Source: a virus
Lineage: Duplodnaviria; Caudoviricetes
DNA length: 43,156 bases
Reading direction: 5' to 3' (one strand)
Virus record (IMG/VR): IMGVR_UViG_3300024309_000003
Coordinates: 1 to 43,156 of that record
Shown: positions 1 through 43,156 of the stretch, in pieces
Layout: each line of letters opens with the position of its first letter
Position numbering within the stretch: position 1 is the stretch's first letter
The notes under the pieces: model-generated
Told to the model about the DNA's origin: nothing
Database searches by the model: none
The model's input: only the letters and a program-made list of their open reading frames with translations
Made by a program: the position numbers and the translations under genes

Positions 1-307
1 CCTCGGATTCTGCACGGGTCCGCTCGGCAATTCGGGCGTATTCCGCGACCTGCCCATTTGCGGCATCGATGATGTCGAGCAACTCCGGAAGGGCATTGAT
101 GCCCTCGATCAGCAGGCGTGCCGTGGGCCCTTCGGGTCCTGCCGGAAAGCACAGATCAGGATGGCCGTCGGGCTGGTTGCAGGGCGAGACCACCGGCACA
201 TGGTAGGGGTCCACGATTCGCCGCCAGGAATTGCTGGTTGCCAGCGTCCAGGGCAGCGGGCAGGCCTGGCGGATCAGTTCGCGCAGCTTCTGTGTGTCGA
301 TTGTCAT
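1..307 (-). CDS. Ead/Ea22-like early protein, truncated by window edge
   Basis: Hand translation MTIDTQKLRELIRQACPLPW...NALPELLDIIDAA; ATGA overlap with the upstream gene; frame open to position 1. Confidence 0.6.
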   Translation of the reverse strand, partial: MTIDTQKLRELIRQACPLPWTLATSNSWRRIVDPYHVPVVSPCNQPDGHPDLCFPAGPEGPTARLLIEGINALPELLDIIDAANGQVAEYARIAERTRAESE

Positions 308-489
308 TCGTCATCCTCCCGGAACGCGACGTACTGCTCATCCCAGTCGCCTGGCGTCATCTTGTCGGGCCAGTCGTCTTTCCCTTCGATCCCCTGCCGC
401 AGGCGCCAATCTGCGGCGAATTTTTCAAGGTCCAGGATGCGCGATTCCAGCCAAGCTCCGAGCGTCTGGGGTTTCGTGTCTGCGGTCAT
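304..489 (-). CDS. Hypothetical phage protein, 61 aa
   Basis: ATGA-coupled on both sides within the leftward operon. Confidence 0.7.
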   Translation of the reverse strand: MTADTKPQTLGAWLESRILDLEKFAADWRLRQGIEGKDDWPDKMTPGDWDEQYVAFREDDE

Positions 490-734
490 TTCAGAGCCTC
501 CAGGAATCCATCCAGGCAGGACCGAAAGCCAGCAGCAAAGCCGCCCTGGTATCCGTTTCGATCATCGGCCTTGTCGGCGCCGATGGCGTGTCCAGCGGCG
601 ACGCGCTCCATGCGGTCGAGCGCTGTCTGAATCTTGGCGCGCAGGTATTCGCCCTCGTAGGCGTCTGCTGCCGCATCTATGCTGCCCTGGTTGATGTGCA
701 GGCCAGACAGCGGGTGTTTGGTATCTATGGTCAT
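486..734 (-). CDS. Hypothetical phage protein, 82 aa
   Basis: AAGGAGG SD, ATGA-coupled. Confidence 0.75.
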   Translation of the reverse strand: MTIDTKHPLSGLHINQGSIDAAADAYEGEYLRAKIQTALDRMERVAAGHAIGADKADDRNGYQGGFAAGFRSCLDGFLEALK

Positions 735-2316: not shown

Positions 2317-4125
2317 CTATGCCGCCGCGCTTTCCGCGACAGCCGTGGTTTCAGTGATCCGGCCTTCCTCGACCCAGAACCCGGTGACGCACGGGAAGAT
2401 CTCGAAATTCGGCAGTTTCTTGAACGTCCCGAACACCAGGGCGGTGTCGATCTTTCCGGCCTCGGCCAGGGCGTCCAGCCCGGCAATGCAATCGGCGCGG
2501 CTGGCCAAGTCCAGAATCCCGAACTCGTCGAGCGCCACCAGCTTGAGGCCCGACAGCTCGGCCAGCGCCAGCGCGATCTGCGCGTCGGCGCGCCAACGCT
2601 CGGACGCCGACAGCAGGGCGTAGGGGCGGCCGCCGGCATAGATGTCGATGTCGCCGTGGACGAGCTCGACGCGCGGGAAGTTCAGCGCCTGCTGCAGGCC
2701 AGCCAGGATCCGATTCACCGGGCCCAGGCCCTTGAGCAGGATGTCGGCCGGGATGCCGTCGGATGACAGCGCGTCGACGGCCGCCTGCCAGGCTTGCGCG
2801 TCTCGGTGCGCGGCGGCTGCCGCCTCAGTGCGGCCCTGGGCCCGGGCGGCGGCCTGTTGGCCGGCCTGCAGGCGGTTGAGATCGGCGCTGGCCTGGGCCA
2901 GCTCGTCCTCGGCGGCGCGCAGGAACTCGCGGATCCGCTCGACGTCGGCCTCACTGCCGCGCTCGATCTGTTGCTCGAGGCGCGCGCCGGCGGCCTTGGC
3001 GGCCTCGATGTCGCGGCGGTCGTTGTCCACTGACCGCTGCATCAGGTCGCGGGCCTTGCGGGCCTCGGGCAGTTGGACGGCGGCGATCTGAGGGTCGGCG
3101 AGGACGACATCCAGCGGGCCGTACTCGGCCTCATAGGCGGCCAGCGTCCGGCAGATTCGTTCGTGCAACTCGGTCGCCGAAGGAAGGATTTCGCAAACTT
3201 CGGACAGGCATGCGGCCAGGTCGTGCACCAGCCCGACACGCGGCCCGGTACCGGCGCGCTGCTCCAGCTGCTGCACCTGGTCGACCCAACGCTTCAGCTC
3301 GGCCTCGTCGCGCACCAGCTTGTCTTGGGCGGCCTGCAGCCTGGCGAACGCCTTCTGATCGGCCTCGCGGTTTTCCTGGGCGGCCAGCCACGCCTTGAGC
3401 TTCTGCTCGGCGGCGCCCAGCTCGGTGCGGCCGTTGGCGATGCGGTTGCGCAGGCCGTCGACCTTGGCCTGCAGCGCCAGTATGGCGTTTTCGTCGACAG
3501 GCGCACCCGCCGGCGCCGCCCAGGTCTCAGCCTTCACGTGGCCGTAGGCTTCGCCGGTGGTGGCCTTCCAACTGGCCTTGGCGTCGCGGCAGCGTTCCTC
3601 CGCGAACTTCGCGGCGCCCGGGAAGCCGGCGCGCAGCATCGGCGTCACCGACTCGATCACAGCGTCGGTCAGGCCGCGCTCGCGCATGGCGGCGACGATG
3701 TCGTCCTTGTTGCTGGTGGCACCGGTCAGGGCGAACAGCAACTGGCGGCGGTCGTCGGTGCTGGCCTGGGCGAATGCCGCCGGATCCAGGCAGTAGGGCA
3801 GGGCCTTGGTCATGGAGGCCCACTGAACCCCAGGATAGTCATGGATCAGGCCCCATTCGCCCTTGGGGGCGACGAATTCGCCTTTGCCGTTCTCGAATTC
3901 CACTACGACGCTACCAGCCTTCTGGCCGTCGTGCACCAGCATGCCCAGATCCTTCTTTTTCAGGACACGCTCGGGCATGCCCATAAGTGCCGCCTGGATG
4001 GCTTCGCGCACGCTGGACTTGCCCGCGTGGTTGGGCCCGCAGAACGCCGCCACCGGCGTCGGCAGGTCGGCAGAAACCTGGGCCACGCCCAAGATGTTGC
4101 TGATTTCGATGTGGTGAATACGCAT
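2317..4125 (-). CDS. Rad50/SbcC-like coiled-coil ABC ATPase
   Basis: Walker A GPNHAGKS, central coiled coil, signature LSASE, Walker B LVALDE. Confidence 0.85.
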   Translation of the reverse strand: MRIHHIEISNILGVAQVSADLPTPVAAFCGPNHAGKSSVREAIQAALMGMPERVLKKKDLGMLVHDGQKAGSVVVEFENGKGEFVAPKGEWGLIHDYPGVQWASMTKALPYCLDPAAFAQASTDDRRQLLFALTGATSNKDDIVAAMRERGLTDAVIESVTPMLRAGFPGAAKFAEERCRDAKASWKATTGEAYGHVKAETWAAPAGAPVDENAILALQAKVDGLRNRIANGRTELGAAEQKLKAWLAAQENREADQKAFARLQAAQDKLVRDEAELKRWVDQVQQLEQRAGTGPRVGLVHDLAACLSEVCEILPSATELHERICRTLAAYEAEYGPLDVVLADPQIAAVQLPEARKARDLMQRSVDNDRRDIEAAKAAGARLEQQIERGSEADVERIREFLRAAEDELAQASADLNRLQAGQQAAARAQGRTEAAAAAHRDAQAWQAAVDALSSDGIPADILLKGLGPVNRILAGLQQALNFPRVELVHGDIDIYAGGRPYALLSASERWRADAQIALALAELSGLKLVALDEFGILDLASRADCIAGLDALAEAGKIDTALVFGTFKKLPNFEIFPCVTGFWVEEGRITETTAVAESAAA

Positions 4126-18451: not shown

Positions 18452-18529
18452 GGTGGGGTAGCGCAGCCAGGTCAGCGCGTCGGGCCCATAACCCGAAGGT
18501 CGGAGGTTCGAATCCTTCCCCCGCAACCA
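18452..18529 (+). tRNA. tRNA-Met(CAT), initiator-type
   Basis: Full cloverleaf, anticodon arm TCGGG-CCCATAA-CCCGA with three G:C pairs, 1:72 mismatch, GGTTCGAATCC, encoded CCA. Confidence 0.93.
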
Positions 18530-27490: not shown

Positions 27491-28003
27491 ATGATGAAAG
27501 AACTCATGTTCCAGGACCATTCCATCCGCCTGATCGAGCGTGATGGCAAACAGTGGGCCAGCGCTGCCGATATCGCCCGGGCGCTGGGCTATGCGAACGC
27601 CGACAAGGTGACACGGATTTACGACCGGCACAAGGTCGAGTTTTCTGACTCCATGACATGCCTGACGATGATGCGAGACCCGGACACCCGTTTTGGGGGT
27701 CCAGGTCAGTCTCGCACCGCTCGCGTGTTCAGCCTTCGCGGCGCTCATCTGATCGCCATGTTCTCGCGCACCGCAAAGGCTCAAGAGTTCCGCCGCTGGG
27801 TGCTGGATGTCATCGAGCAGCACCAGGCCGCGCCGTCGCTGATCCAGGAATGGTTCGACGCCAAGGCCGCGCTTGATGCGCAAGACAAATTCGCCAGCCT
27901 GTGCGGGCGGGGCCTCAACGAACACAAGATGCGCAAGCCGCCGCTCGTTGGGCGCCTCGAAGCAATCGCCGAACGGTTGCAGCCCTCTCTTCAATTCAAC
28001 TGA
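27491..28003 (+). CDS. Bro-N domain protein (antirepressor-like)
   Basis: W.SAADIARALGY, FSLRGAHLIAMFSRT.KA.EFRRWVLD. Confidence 0.85.
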   Translation: MMKELMFQDHSIRLIERDGKQWASAADIARALGYANADKVTRIYDRHKVEFSDSMTCLTMMRDPDTRFGGPGQSRTARVFSLRGAHLIAMFSRTAKAQEFRRWVLDVIEQHQAAPSLIQEWFDAKAALDAQDKFASLCGRGLNEHKMRKPPLVGRLEAIAERLQPSLQFN

Positions 28004-39616: not shown

Positions 39617-40011
39617 TGAAATACTACAAATCCGCCTCCGGTGATGTCTACGCCTATGAATCCGACGGCTCTCAGGACGCCTGGATCAAGCCCGATCTAG
39701 TACCGATGACCCAGGCTGAAATCGACGCGCACCTTAATCCGCTCACGCCTGAACCTCCCAGCTACCCGCAATTCACGGCGCTCGAAATGCTGGATCTGTT
39801 TACCGAGGCCGAGCAACTGGCTGTGGTCGAGGCCACGATGTCGGTGCCAGCCGTCAAGCTCTGGTATGACCGTCTCATCGCCGCCATGTTCGTGACCTAC
39901 GAGGATCCCCGCGTAGAGGCCGGACTTCAGGCGCTGCTCGATGCCGATCTCCTGACGCCGGAGCGAAAAGCGGAGATCGTCGCGGCGATGCAACCGCCTG
40001 CAGCAGACTGA
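39616..40011 (+). CDS. Tail fibre assembly chaperone
   Basis: MKYYK...VYAYESDGSQDAWIK..LV.MT.AEIDAHLNP. Confidence 0.75.
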   Translation: MKYYKSASGDVYAYESDGSQDAWIKPDLVPMTQAEIDAHLNPLTPEPPSYPQFTALEMLDLFTEAEQLAVVEATMSVPAVKLWYDRLIAAMFVTYEDPRVEAGLQALLDADLLTPERKAEIVAAMQPPAAD

Positions 40012-40062
40012 CCGGCCTCGCGCCGGTTTTTCGTTTTTGACCCGCCCTGCGCGGGTTTTTTT
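40011..40062 (+). terminator. Tandem intrinsic terminators before the lysis cassette
   Basis: ACCGGC-ctcgc-GCCGGT-TTTT and ACCCGC-cctgc-GCGGGT-TTTTTT. Confidence 0.75.
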
Positions 40063-40083
40063 CGTCCAAAGGAACGACACGAC

Positions 40084-40425
40084 ATGCAACCACCGGAAAA
40101 CATCGATGCGCGGGTCTGGGCGTGGCTGATCGGGGCGGCCGGCGCGGTCATCTCGATGCAGTTTATCCGGGGCCTGACATGGCCGCAGAAGCTCGTCATG
40201 GCGGTGTCAGGCACGGTCATGTCCGTGGTACTGACTCAGCCGGTTGTCGAGTTCGTGGGCATGCCGGCGGGCTGGGCTGACGGCGTGGCGTTTCTCGTCG
40301 GGCTGTTTGGATGGTCGGCCGTGGGGTCGATCATCGCGGCGATCCGCAAGGCCGACTGGTGGGGGTTGATCCAGGACCTGGCGCGCCGGCTGATCGACCG
40401 GCTGCCAGGCCGGGGAGGGCAGTGA
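40084..40425 (+). CDS. Holin (putative)
   Basis: Three hydrophobic segments, GAAGAVIS...AFLVGLFG, upstream of endolysin. Confidence 0.75.
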   Translation: MQPPENIDARVWAWLIGAAGAVISMQFIRGLTWPQKLVMAVSGTVMSVVLTQPVVEFVGMPAGWADGVAFLVGLFGWSAVGSIIAAIRKADWWGLIQDLARRLIDRLPGRGGQ

Positions 40426-40426
40426 C

Positions 40427-40720
40427 ATGTGGACATGGATCTATGTGGCCGCGCATCTGCTGATTGCGCTGGCCTGCACCTGGGCGGTGCTCTCGCCGCG
40501 CATCAATGACGGGCTATTTGGCAAGTTTGCGCTCCTGCTGCTGTGCTTTGCCTCGCTGGCGTGCGCCGGCTGGGCGCTGCGCTGGCCAGTGAGCGTGGAT
40601 CGATCGGAGGCCCTGTTTGCCGCGGCCATCGCCTGCATGGCGTTGCGGTGCTACTGGCTCAAGACGTGGGCGCCGGGCCTGCGCCGGCACATCAAACGGA
40701 GGATTCGCAAATGCAACTGA
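40427..40720 (+). CDS. Second lysis membrane protein (holin/antiholin-like)
   Basis: Three TM segments, basic C-terminus, overlaps endolysin start. Confidence 0.6.
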   Translation: MWTWIYVAAHLLIALACTWAVLSPRINDGLFGKFALLLLCFASLACAGWALRWPVSVDRSEALFAAAIACMALRCYWLKTWAPGLRRHIKRRIRKCN

Positions 40721-41157
40721 CTGAGCATTTCGCGCTGGCCGAGCTCATTCGGTCGGACACGGCCACGCGCCTGGGCATCGACAACACGCCCACACCCCAC
40801 CACCTGGCCAGCCTGCATGTGCTGGCGGCGCACCTGGAGAGCGTCCGCGCCCTGCTGGGGCACCCGATCATCATCACGTCCGGATATCGGTCGCCGGCGC
40901 TCAATCGCGCTGTGGATGGGTCGGCAACGTCGTCGCATTGCGAGGGCCTGGCCGCCGATTTCCACGTCCCCGGGTTCGGCCCGGACCAAGCCGTGGCGCA
41001 GGCCATCGCGGATTCGGCCCTGGAGTTCGACCAGTTGATATTCGAGCAGGCGCGCACACACTGGGTCCACCTGGGGGCAGGGGAGCGCATGCGCCGCGAG
41101 GTGCTGTCCTGGCGATCGGGCCGGGGGTATCAGCGCGGCATCGTGAGGATCGAATGA
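40711..41157 (+). CDS. Endolysin, peptidase M15 family
   Basis: LTEHF.LAEL, ITSGYRSPALN, SSHCEGLAAD, FDQLIFE, WVH. Confidence 0.92.
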   Translation: MQLTEHFALAELIRSDTATRLGIDNTPTPHHLASLHVLAAHLESVRALLGHPIIITSGYRSPALNRAVDGSATSSHCEGLAADFHVPGFGPDQAVAQAIADSALEFDQLIFEQARTHWVHLGAGERMRREVLSWRSGRGYQRGIVRIE

Positions 41158-41657
41158 TCGCCGCTGCACTCAAGGCCCTGGCCGGCTGGCGGGGCTACGC
41201 GGCGGCGGCTGTGGTGGGCGGGTTGATTCTGGGCGCCGTCGGCGTGACTGTGACGCGCTGGTACTACAGGGCAGAGATCGCCGGCATGGAGCGTGACCAG
41301 GCCCAGCAAATAGCAGACGCCCAGGCGCTGGCCAGGGCAACAGAACAGCGCCGTTGGGCGGCGCGAGAGGGAGTTATCAATGATGCCAAAGAACAGGCCG
41401 CCGCAGCGGCCGCTGATGCTGATCGTGCCCGCGCTGCTTCTGAGCGCCTGCGCCAGCAAGTCGCCCGTCTCCGTGCGGGCTCCGGAGATTCCGCCGCTGC
41501 CGGCCGAGGCCAGGGTCAGTCAGGTGCCGACACCCTCGATCTGCTCATCCGGCTGCTCAGCGGGCTGGACGACGCTGGTCGAGACGTCAGCCGATACGCT
41601 GACCGACTCCGAATAGCGGGGCTGGCGTGCGAGCGGGCCTACGAGTCGCTGCGGTGA
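41154..41657 (+). CDS. Inner-membrane spanin (Rz-like, DUF2514-like)
   Basis: N-terminal TM, coiled coil, YADRLRIAGLACERAY. Confidence 0.85.
   Translation: MIAAALKALAGWRGYAAAAVVGGLILGAVGVTVTRWYYRAEIAGMERDQAQQIADAQALARATEQRRWAAREGVINDAKEQAAAAAADADRARAASERLRQQVARLRAGSGDSAAAGRGQGQSGADTLDLLIRLLSGLDDAGRDVSRYADRLRIAGLACERAYESLR
41380..41616 (+). CDS. Embedded outer-membrane spanin lipoprotein (Rz1-like)
   Basis: Alternative frame inside Rz; lipobox LLLSAC; Pro-rich; GAGGGAG SD. Confidence 0.8.
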   Translation: MMPKNRPPQRPLMLIVPALLLSACASKSPVSVRAPEIPPLPAEARVSQVPTPSICSSGCSAGWTTLVETSADTLTDSE

Positions 41658-41669
41658 TCTTGACGCGGT

Positions 41670-41753
41670 AAAAAATAGCCGCCTGCAGGCGGCGGCCATA
41701 TTTTCCCCGAACAATGAACTCAGAGTTTCAATCCACGCGTCGAAGCGCGAAAC
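41670..41753 (-). ncRNA. Solitary type I-C CRISPR-like repeat plus spacer-like segment plus terminator (crRNA-like RNA / Racr candidate)
   Basis: GTTTCGCGCTTCGACGCGTGGATTGAAAC (41753..41725), 25-31 unique nt, then GCCGCC-tgca-GGCGGC-TATTTTTT. Confidence 0.7.
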
Positions 41754-41756
41754 CAA

Positions 41757-41785
41757 AGCATAAAATCATTGCGCACTCGGTGCAA
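41757..41785 (-). promoter_or_regulatory. Sigma70 promoter of the repeat RNA
   Basis: TTGCAC-17-TATGCT, predicted start about 41751, at the repeat hairpin. Confidence 0.6.
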
Positions 41786-42113
41786 GAGTGGCGATGACTT
41801 GGGCGGCGATCGTGCGCCGCCAGTCCTCTTCCGTGCCCGGATACCATGCGGGCGTGCGCACCGCGTGGTAATCGTTGGTCCAGGTCGGAGGCTCGCGCTG
41901 GATGTCGGCCTCCATTCGGCCGGTGGGGCTTTGGTAGACGACCGCGTACCAGGTTGAGGTCTCTGTCGCGCCGTTTGTCAGATCGATAGCCATGGTGCTC
42001 TCCACTTTATTGGTGATCCAGTCGGTAAGCCGCATGCCCGCGGCCCGGCTCTCGCGCACCCAGCGCGCCTTGGTGGCGGCCGGGACGCGCAGATGAATGA
42101 GGGCGTCTGTCAT
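41766..42113 (-). CDS. RHH-domain fusion protein, 115 aa; anti-CRISPR candidate
   Basis: IHLRVPAATKARWVRESRAAGMRLTDWI ribbon-helix-helix; ATGA-coupled; internal GGAG-ATG at 41993. Confidence 0.6.
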   Translation of the reverse strand: MTDALIHLRVPAATKARWVRESRAAGMRLTDWITNKVESTMAIDLTNGATETSTWYAVVYQSPTGRMEADIQREPPTWTNDYHAVRTPAWYPGTEEDWRRTIAAQVIATLAPSAQ

Positions 42114-42523
42114 ACGCCGTCCTGCAGGCGCATGCGTGCTTGCAGCTCGTCGTACTTGCGCTGAGCGGCGTGACCAGCCTTGATGCTGGCCTGGTACTCG
42201 ACCCACTCGGGATGTGCTTCGATCCTGGCGCGAGCGGCCATGATCTCGTCGTAGCGGTCTTGCATGAGGCCCAGGCGCCAGATCGCACCAGCCGCACCGG
42301 CGGGGGCCTGGGCCTTTTCGGCGGCGGTCAGCGGGCGGATGGAAACATCACGGTGGATCTCGTCGCCGTAGGTGAGGTCGATGTCGATATGGCGGCGGCC
42401 GGTGTCGCCGCTGACGTTGGATTCGACGTCCTGGAAGTGTTCGGCCGACAGTGTGAACTCGACCTTGACGGTCTTGCCGTTGTCGATCCAGGTGACGGTT
42501 TCGGTGGAGATGGTCTGGTACAT
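42110..42523 (-). CDS. Hypothetical protein, 137 aa; anti-CRISPR candidate
   Basis: AGGA SD; first gene under the operator-containing promoter next to an Aca4-like gene. Confidence 0.6.
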   Translation of the reverse strand: MYQTISTETVTWIDNGKTVKVEFTLSAEHFQDVESNVSGDTGRRHIDIDLTYGDEIHRDVSIRPLTAAEKAQAPAGAAGAIWRLGLMQDRYDEIMAARARIEAHPEWVEYQASIKAGHAAQRKYDELQARMRLQDGV

Positions 42524-42592
42524 GACGTTGATCCTATCAGGATGCCTGGTGCCGCCAGGGCGGGGTGTCGTGATCTCGATCACCATGACTAC

Positions 42593-42622
42593 ATAATACT
42601 ATCGTTTAGACGATAGTGTCAA
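42593..42622 (-). promoter_or_regulatory. Strong promoter with inverted-repeat operator
   Basis: TTGACA-18-TATTAT; ACTATCGT-ttag-ACGATAGT (42598..42617) fills the spacer. Confidence 0.8.
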
Positions 42623-42630
42623 ATAGGTAT

Positions 42631-42840
42631 TTACCCTATCTCATAGGCCTGTTTGATCCGTGCGTCAGCGTCCCGCAGCTGCACAACCGCCCGGGCGACA
42701 TTGCTCGTTGGACAGCCGGTTTCCCGGGCCGCGTCGGCCTGCTGCTCGCCAGCCACCAGCACCAGCCTGGCGGCGGTCAAGATCGGTTTGCTGTGCATCC
42801 GCAGGAGCGAGGCGAGGGCGTCGAATTGTGCGTCGGTCAT
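42631..42840 (-). CDS. aca4: TrfB/KorA-like HTH repressor, Aca4-like
   Basis: MT..QF.ALA.L.R...AARLVLV.G...DAAR.TG pattern matches Aca4 as I recall it; extended -10 TGaTAGCAT 6 nt before ATG suggests a leaderless mRNA. Confidence 0.7.
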   Translation of the reverse strand: MTDAQFDALASLLRMHSKPILTAARLVLVAGEQQADAARETGCPTSNVARAVVQLRDADARIKQAYEIG

Positions 42841-42877
42841 GGCGATATGCTATCAGGTAAACGATTGCGGTGGGCGC

Positions 42878-42902
42878 AAAAAAGCCCGCGCTGTGGCGGG
42901 CT
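42878..42902 (-). terminator. Intrinsic terminator upstream of the aca4-like gene
   Basis: AGCCCGC-cacagc-GCGGGCT-TTTTT. Confidence 0.7.
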
Positions 42903-42904
42903 GA

Positions 42905-42925
42905 TGTGTGACCAATGCGTGACCC
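42905..42925. repeat. Direct repeat TGyGTGACC, likely integrase arm-type sites
   Basis: tgtgtgacca / tgcgtgaccc about 105 bp from the att core. Confidence 0.5.
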
Positions 42926-42932
42926 AAGCAGA

Positions 42933-42961
42933 TTGAAATCTGTATGAATTCACAGTATTAT
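42933..42961 (+). promoter_or_regulatory. Outward-facing promoter with LexA box
   Basis: TTGAAA-17-TATTAT; CTGTatgaattcACAG at 42940..42955. Confidence 0.7.
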
Positions 42962-43029
42962 AAAAACAGGATAGCGCCGTATGGCGTTGATAAATAAAGA
43001 TTTTATTTCCGTGAATTGCTAGGGCGTGA

Positions 43030-43093
<64 letters not shown>

Positions 43094-43130
43094 ATCCCCT
43101 GTAAGTCATCGATTACAGGGGATTTTCTTT
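43094..43130 (+). terminator. Host tRNA terminator
   Basis: ATCCCCTGTAA...TTACAGGGGAT-TTTCTTT. Confidence 0.8.
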
Positions 43131-43156
43131 GTCTGGATGATTTGTTGACCTGCATC

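Follow-up and report, generated by a model that had tools for sequence, protein, structure and literature searches.

A cassette with a predicted repressor at a prophage end as a candidate anti-CRISPR operon with a type I-C-like repeat

Is the small cassette at the end of a temperate phage genome, which points against the late genes and carries a lone CRISPR-like repeat behind its last gene, directed against host defence, and is CRISPR-Cas its target? The window, the whole stretch of 43,156 bases analysed here, is IMG/VR record IMGVR_UViG_3300024309_000003, positions 1-43,156 (Duplodnaviria; Caudoviricetes). A PHROGs scan of 40 open reading frames of the window gave a temperate siphovirus-like gene order, in which recombination, repressor and replication genes are followed by plus-strand terminase, head, tail and lysis genes. 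A phage-encoded tRNA-Met (18452-18529) separates early from late genes, and an anti-repressor (Ant) gene lies within the head-tail block (27491-28003). The late block to the left of the cassette ends in holins, an endolysin and spanins, the last spanin terminating at 41657, and beyond it the cassette lies on the minus strand, convergent with the late operon.

To the right of the cassette is the 3' half of a tRNA gene, read as an attachment-site remnant that marks the prophage end; no whole tRNA was called at 43028-43091. A tRNA or att end adjoins related cassettes too (loci L002, L005 and L043). The record starts inside small minus-strand genes (window 1-500) and no integrase was seen among the 40 reading frames scanned, so the left end of the prophage seems to be missing. 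The closest relative of the cassette lies in a Castellaniella metagenome-assembled genome (L005; identities of 93% for the HTH protein, 90% for ORF2 and 84% for ORF3), and the host is therefore probably a betaproteobacterium related to Castellaniella. Neither the HTH protein nor ORF3 had a tblastn match among 50,697 GenBank phage records. Contigs of one metatranscriptome contain all sampled words of 41650-42900, a contig-level match that is not counted as evidence of expression. The features of the locus are as follows.

43028..43091, plus strand: 3' half of a tRNA gene, which we take to be of the Ser type (sequence; Rfam matches to tRNA-like models)
42883..42902, minus strand: terminator-like hairpin dividing the cassette from the att side; a similar hairpin precedes the HTH gene in L001, L005, L043 and L044
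42849..42868, either strand: a second operator-like site, degenerate (11 of 16 arm positions), which overlaps the promoter of the HTH gene itself
42847..42855, minus strand: extended -10 element (TG-n-TAGCAT) with the start codon of the HTH gene 6 nt downstream and no Shine-Dalgarno sequence
42631..42840, minus strand: KorA/TrfB-type HTH protein, 69 aa, related to Aca4, predicted repressor (Pfam KORA; PDB 7BBQ)
42593..42622, minus strand: near-consensus sigma-70 promoter, TTGACA-18-TATTAT (promoter scan), conserved in related cassettes
42598..42617, either strand: perfect 8-4-8 inverted repeat, predicted main operator, covering the spacer and one base of each hexamer
42524..42590, minus strand: 5' leader, the first 14 nt of which are found again after promoters of this type in other mobile elements
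42110..42523, minus strand: ORF2, 137 aa, acidic (pI 5.3), start behind AGGA, of no known family, candidate inhibitor
41994..42113, minus strand: ORF3 residues 1-40, ribbon-helix-helix (RHH) module homologous to the N-terminal RHH of AcrIF25, ending in GGAG before an in-frame ATG
41766..41993, minus strand: ORF3 tail, 75 aa, acidic (pI 4.6), with an internal in-frame start, of no known family, candidate inhibitor
41725..41752, minus strand: solitary, shortened type I-C-like CRISPR repeat, 28 nt, candidate RNA anti-CRISPR (Racr), with a 4-bp stem base and an intact 11-nt handle (41725-41735)
41670..41699, minus strand: intrinsic terminator (terminator call), closing the cassette against the convergent late operon

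The minus-strand order is thus HTH gene, promoter with inverted repeat, ORF2, ORF3, repeat and terminator. An initial annotation had proposed such a cassette at the prophage end, opposite to the late operon, and every part it named is present. Its near-consensus promoter (-35 TTGACA at 42622-42617, an 18-nt spacer and -10 TATTAT at 42598-42593) agrees with the consensus at 11 of 12 positions, the 8-4-8 repeat behind the HTH gene is perfect, and the two coupled genes share the ATGA at 42113-42110. The repeat RNA that it placed after ORF3 was found just beyond the 41766..42840 first assigned to the cassette. Layout, two operator-like sites, KorA fold, AcrIF25-type RHH module and repeat can all be read directly from the sequence.

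The regulatory part of the argument is the best supported, and it is very likely that the operon is switched by a repressor. Genes of Aca proteins in general adjoin a strong core promoter that contains an inverted repeat, and the window shows the same: the operator repeat is one of eight perfect hairpins with arms of at least 8 in the 43 kb, and two sites of this promoter quality occur in 40000-43156, vs 0.7 in shuffles. Of 4000 random 45-nt stretches taken from the window, 0.1% reach the score of the second operator-like site, an addition to the earlier picture. This site is placed alike in L005, L001 and L043 and absent in L044, so that four of the five loci with an upstream HTH gene have it 8-9 nt before the HTH start, in each case following their own operator group. 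The operators of six loci form two sequence groups that match two recognition-helix groups, a covariation that is suggestive only, because the loci are related and the pattern amounts to one change, not many.

The repressor gene had been described as lying upstream on an apparently leaderless transcript, and gene order bears out the first point. The transcript is probably leaderless, since the -10 element sits so close to the ATG and the window has no Shine-Dalgarno sequence; a TAnnnT hexamer lies 6-7 nt before the HTH ATG in all five upstream-type loci, the window included. No terminator was called between the HTH gene and the main promoter, so read-through is possible. Folding of the 5' leader gave a z of 0.13, no stability above shuffles, and does not support a structured leader RNA as for Aca1/Aca2.

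How close is this protein to Aca4, to which it had been likened? It matches Pfam KORA at 31.4 bits (cut-off 26.7) and PDB 7BBQ at an E value of 9e-4, and PMC9410906 assigns Aca4 to the KORA/TrfB family with a size of about 67-72 aa, in line with the 69 aa found here. Hand-counted without gaps, 27 of 67 residues (40%) are identical to the Aca4 reference WP_071533911.1, 24 of them in the first 42 residues and 3 in the last 25. In the same paper, mean identity to the reference is 72% for acr-associated members and 42% for solo homologues, so the protein does not reach the acr-associated range and stands at the level of homologues not tied to acr genes. The Aca4 operator motif is tacaccc-N4-gggtgca in the supplement of PMC9410906, and the window operator, ACTATCGT-N4-ACGATAGT, is alike in geometry but different in sequence. 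The 4-nt operator centre between -35 and -10, the double occurrence of the operator and the occurrence of family members with acrIF11 are shared with the Pseudomonas acr-aca4 operons. The recognition helix is not shared, however, and aca4 is the last gene in the acrIF12 operons listed in that supplement, whereas the HTH gene here lies upstream on its own predicted leaderless transcript. The comparison with Aca4 thus stands for fold and family; because identity, operator and position all differ, the HTH protein should not be filed as Aca4.

It nevertheless likely works as an Aca-type repressor of the operon, judging from its siblings and its operators. Control of an adjacent operon by an Aca protein is shown for Aca14 and predicted for Aca4 in PMC13551039. 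Aca14, an RHH protein with an AT-rich operator, and other neighbour-operon Aca proteins resemble the present case in that control and in the presence of RHH regulators in acr loci; unlike there, the RHH module of the window is fused to cargo, namely ORF3.

Sibling cassettes supply the known anti-CRISPR gene that the window's cassette lacks. A profile of three close HTH homologues matched in 11 of 401 genomes of the family. In Kerstersia similis (L044/L077), an upstream HTH gene whose product is 68% identical is followed by the same promoter and leader and then, as first gene of the operon, by an AcrIF11-family gene (NCBIfam 164.7 bits, cut-off 50). A 48%-identical HTH gene directly follows another AcrIF11 gene at L046. 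At L045, a 65%-identical HTH gene is last in its operon, the usual aca position, and the operon promoter has the same operator type. A scan of eight cargo genes in three sibling cassettes (L001, L043, L044) recognised only one as an Acr. A further arrangement was seen in G053 (L046 and L054, about 1.9 kb apart), where an operon behind tRNA-His has a KorA-like HTH gene on either side, the first lying upstream of the promoter and the second directly after the AcrIF11 gene.

The promoter itself is more widespread. Promoter plus 14-nt leader, as a pattern, gave 17, 3 and 8 matches in three collections, of which 22 were left after removal of one self-match and five duplicates. A spacer inverted repeat (at least 6 of 8 pairs) is present in 5 of the 22 and in none of the other 17, and the scanned genes behind the operator-free copies include ArdC, SSB, DUF3560 and a DNA methylase. 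The promoter is therefore a general early-expression part of mobile elements, which gains an operator where it goes with a repressor gene. In operator-free elements it drives, together with the leader, ArdC, SSB and DUF3560, so on its own it is no pointer to CRISPR; it supports an anti-defence role generally. In Thauera and metagenome elements (L057, L059, L060, L078, L080-L082), the operator-free copies before ArdC, SSB, DUF3560 and methylase genes resemble a conjugative leading region. At L002/L065 and L068, the same promoter and leader are combined with another inverted repeat, whose centre is 3 nt long, and the gene at the 3' end encodes an MqsA-like HTH protein; repressor and operator appear to have been swapped together. 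An early version of the promoter pattern gave 14 viral matches, 13 of them unrelated.

What do the two genes encode? ORF2 most likely starts at 42523; a 158-aa reading would begin at the transcription start. Its family is dispersed, with 17 representatives at E ≤ 0.001, and an alignment of 15 (two much longer proteins with short-stretch matches were excluded) gave no known family above noise in Pfam, PHROGs or NCBIfam. Neither PDB sequences nor the ESM Atlas returned a match. The structural model (pLDDT 86) predicts a beta-sheet and long C-terminal helices, and Foldseek found nothing at E < 0.001. A wide structural search reached at best Z 5.0, to generic sheets and PH-like domains; this is background level. 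Among 400 genomes of the class, an ORF2 profile found one match, the known orthologue (L005), and no gene-neighbourhood evidence was found for the distant relatives. ORF2 is a candidate inhibitor by the position of its gene.

ORF3 (115 aa) is a fusion. Residues 3-46 match AcrIF25 (PDB 8JDH) at E 5e-13, and both proteins carry an N-terminal RHH module. The match stops at residue 46; the tail is unrelated to AcrIF25 (8JDH/8JDI) and the C-terminal inhibitory domain was not found. Because, in addition, the RHH of AcrIF25 is described as dispensable for inhibition and possibly a built-in regulator (discussion of PMC13551039), ORF3 is not an AcrIF25.

A search with residues 1-41 returned 469 proteins. 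Among the best 120 of these, 118 could be split at a fixed motif, and their tails form 23 clusters, that is, at least 23 unrelated tails in that subset. Methionine directly follows the module in 109 of the 118, and GGAG or GAGG precedes the internal ATG at all four loci checked at the DNA level. Since an internal ATG with GGAG follows the module in ORF3 as well, its tail may be made both fused and, from the internal start, alone. The largest tail family of the subset (68 of 118) is presumably AcrIC6, and the tail of P0023 seems to resemble AcrIF15; PDB searches for these two matched the RHH alone. None of 18 scanned representatives of the fusion tails (P0022-P0138) exceeded a Pfam or NCBIfam cut-off. 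One further RHH fusion, at L002, carries another tail. The ORF3 tail itself has only two relatives and no known-family or Acr match in Pfam, PHROGs, NCBIfam, PDB sequences or folds; the model, built from three sequences, is weak (pLDDT 63), and with it Foldseek gave no match. The initial view that neither cargo protein resembles a known Acr agrees with these searches for ORF2 and the ORF3 tail, but not for the ORF3 N-terminus.

Alternatively, and whether or not regulation and decoy RNA are as described, the two proteins may be general early accessory factors, acting against restriction, abortive infection or superinfecting phages and not against CRISPR-Cas. The company that the promoter and leader keep elsewhere (ArdC, SSB, DUF3560, DNA methylase) is what this alternative would predict, neither protein matched an Acr by sequence or fold in the searches above, and according to PMC13551039 functions are assigned to less than half of the genes that Aca1/Aca2 control. 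The RHH module in common with AcrIF25, the AcrIF11 gene of a sibling cassette and the CRISPR repeat at the end of the same predicted transcript argue against it, and we consider it unlikely, though the most serious of the alternatives. For an anti-CRISPR role of at least one of the two proteins, the chances are near even.

For the repeat, a decoy-RNA role is likely, the next best supported part after the regulation. It starts 13 nt past the ORF3 stop and shares its last 15 bases, without a difference, with four array repeats of related genomes; chance origin of this 3' end is excluded because the chance expectation in the window is 1.5e-4. The type I-C label, a tentative one, follows from the form of the repeat as given in PMC8524198, where the stem is 7 nt long. 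Compared with the 32-nt repeats of the arrays, the 28-nt unit has a reduced upper stem and loop and keeps the stem base and the 11-nt overhang, the two elements that Cas5d recognises (PMC5965381). In keeping with a Racr, it is a single copy in a mobile element, outside an array and with phage genes on its left, and the stem base and 11-nt handle of host-type repeats are retained. The full 7-bp hairpin of host repeats is not: a C-A mismatch leaves 4 bp in the canonical register in the window, and the L005 stems have 5 bp. Folding prefers a shifted register for the window repeat, and likewise for genuine array repeats. The predicted cut product measures 66 nt to the U-run of the terminator, vs array periods of 65-68 nt in related bacteria.

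The Castellaniella orthologue (L005, 4089-4245) has two such shortened units, 70 nt apart, before its terminator. The 15-nt 3' end is exact in all three copies, while loop and flanks differ. With a strict pattern, shortened repeats were absent from viral contigs and occurred once in genomes, in this orthologue. A looser pattern found 51 viral loci, nearly all of them full-length repeats by eye, with no HTH, RHH or ORF2 gene near any of the 51. Most of these loci (L085-L135) hold a single full-length I-C-type repeat, several just before a ribosome-binding site and gene. In G037, two I-C-type repeats (L025, L034) lie 1.5 kb apart around a few small genes, one of them HTH-like, an arrangement that may go back to insertion into a repeat.

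Arrays whose repeats have the 3' end of the window repeat are present in only 5 of 151 genomes of the family; none was found in the assembly of the closest relative (G001). Among 81 spacers, those from the retrieved parts of related-genome arrays, one (from G113) matches window 2527-2559 at 29 of 33 positions and has CTC on the 5' side, the type I-C motif being TTC. Because a related genome's spacer matches the window in this way, relatives of the phage seem to meet such CRISPR systems; the match is not one of self-targeting. An exact 19-mer spacer match from G004, which has 37-nt repeats, also falls within window 2527-2563.

Among the closest known systems is acrIC5-racrIC1 of a Bifidobacterium pseudocatenulatum prophage (PMC10651486). 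Both prophage operons have a solitary type I-C repeat closely following a small gene, at 11 nt from acrIC5 in the case of RacrIC1 and at 13 nt here. Unlike in that system, the repeat here is shortened to 28 nt with a stem of 4-5 bp, neither protein is AcrIC5, there is a KorA-type repressor upstream, a relative has two units and the host is probably betaproteobacterial.

Could the repeat instead give a working guide RNA that enlists the Cascade of the host against a competing mobile element, or for repressing one of the host's own genes? The repeat-42 nt-repeat order of L005 has the form of a mini-array, and the window and L005 resemble each other in what follows the last repeat. Yet no target for the three post-repeat stretches was found in the window and 41 loci (the best run was 12 nt, with 16 of 34 positions), and their lengths, 25 nt to the terminator and 42 nt from one repeat to the next, do not agree with the spacers of 33-36 nt in arrays with 32-nt repeats. 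The first three bases are common to all three stretches and point to duplication more than to spacer acquisition, and we regard a guide function as improbable. About as improbable is that the repeat is a functionless, decayed relic behind an ordinary autoregulated moron: the window stem is indeed shortened and mismatched, and the pattern search of genomes found the shortened form in only one other, but the 15-nt end is exact in three copies, loss is limited to upper stem and loop, and repeat position and product length fit processing.

The reading that we prefer, and consider probable, is that of a repressor-controlled anti-CRISPR operon of a temperate phage, with a strong promoter, two candidate inhibitors, a type I-C repeat decoy and shut-off by the HTH protein. 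On phage entry, the promoter would fire at once because the new cell has no repressor, a timing proposed by analogy with other acr operons. Cleavage of the transcript by host Cas5c would fall at the foot of the short hairpin, between 41736 and 41735, and release a 66-nt RNA made up of the 11-nt handle, 25 nt that match no known target, and the hairpin of the terminator. As has been proposed for Racrs, this RNA would keep Cas5c, Cas7 and Cas8c bound in complexes that do not target. Inhibition by protein, of CRISPR-Cas or of another defence, would be the part of ORF2 and the ORF3 tail. The HTH protein, made from its own leaderless transcript, would then bind both sites, repressing the operon and limiting its own synthesis. 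Further control may come from the RHH module within the ORF3 fusion, and the internal start would allow the tail to be made without that module.

Four lines of evidence support an anti-defence operon independently: the AcrIF11-family gene of a sibling, the AcrIF25-type RHH, the operator covariation and the conservation of the repeat in the orthologue. Against the preferred reading stand the lack of a known Acr gene in the window's cassette, the single recognised Acr among the sibling cargo, the use of promoter and leader before non-CRISPR genes, the 4-bp stem of the repeat, the rarity in the family of arrays with this repeat end, the covariation that amounts to one change and the identity of the HTH protein to Aca4 at the level of solo homologues. 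Of the anti-defence module first proposed, an entry burst of protein and RNA inhibitors, the Aca-type repressor and the repeat RNA are supported, whereas the proteins are cast as anti-CRISPRs by association and the burst is borrowed from other acr operons. As far as its sequence goes, the locus most likely represents an operon of the acr-aca-racr type whose arrangement is new. A stronger claim, for now tentative and rather doubtful as a whole, is that it combines a minimal type I-C RNA anti-CRISPR (a 4-5 bp stem plus handle, expandable in tandem) with two new Acr families and two new handles for Acr discovery, an upstream, leaderless Aca4-related subfamily and a portable AcrIF25-type RHH tag with internal start, whose at least 23 unrelated tails would include many undiscovered inhibitors.

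RacrIC1 is the only tested type I-C RNA anti-CRISPR met in a limited literature search. A repressor gene placed upstream, as here, would be overlooked wherever aca is sought only behind the last gene of an operon. The 23 tail clusters of the RHH tag form a list of further candidate inhibitors, and ORF2 and the ORF3 tail are ready candidates for new ones. If the shortened unit works, it would define what Cas5c requires of a repeat and provide a small RNA off-switch for type I-C tools.
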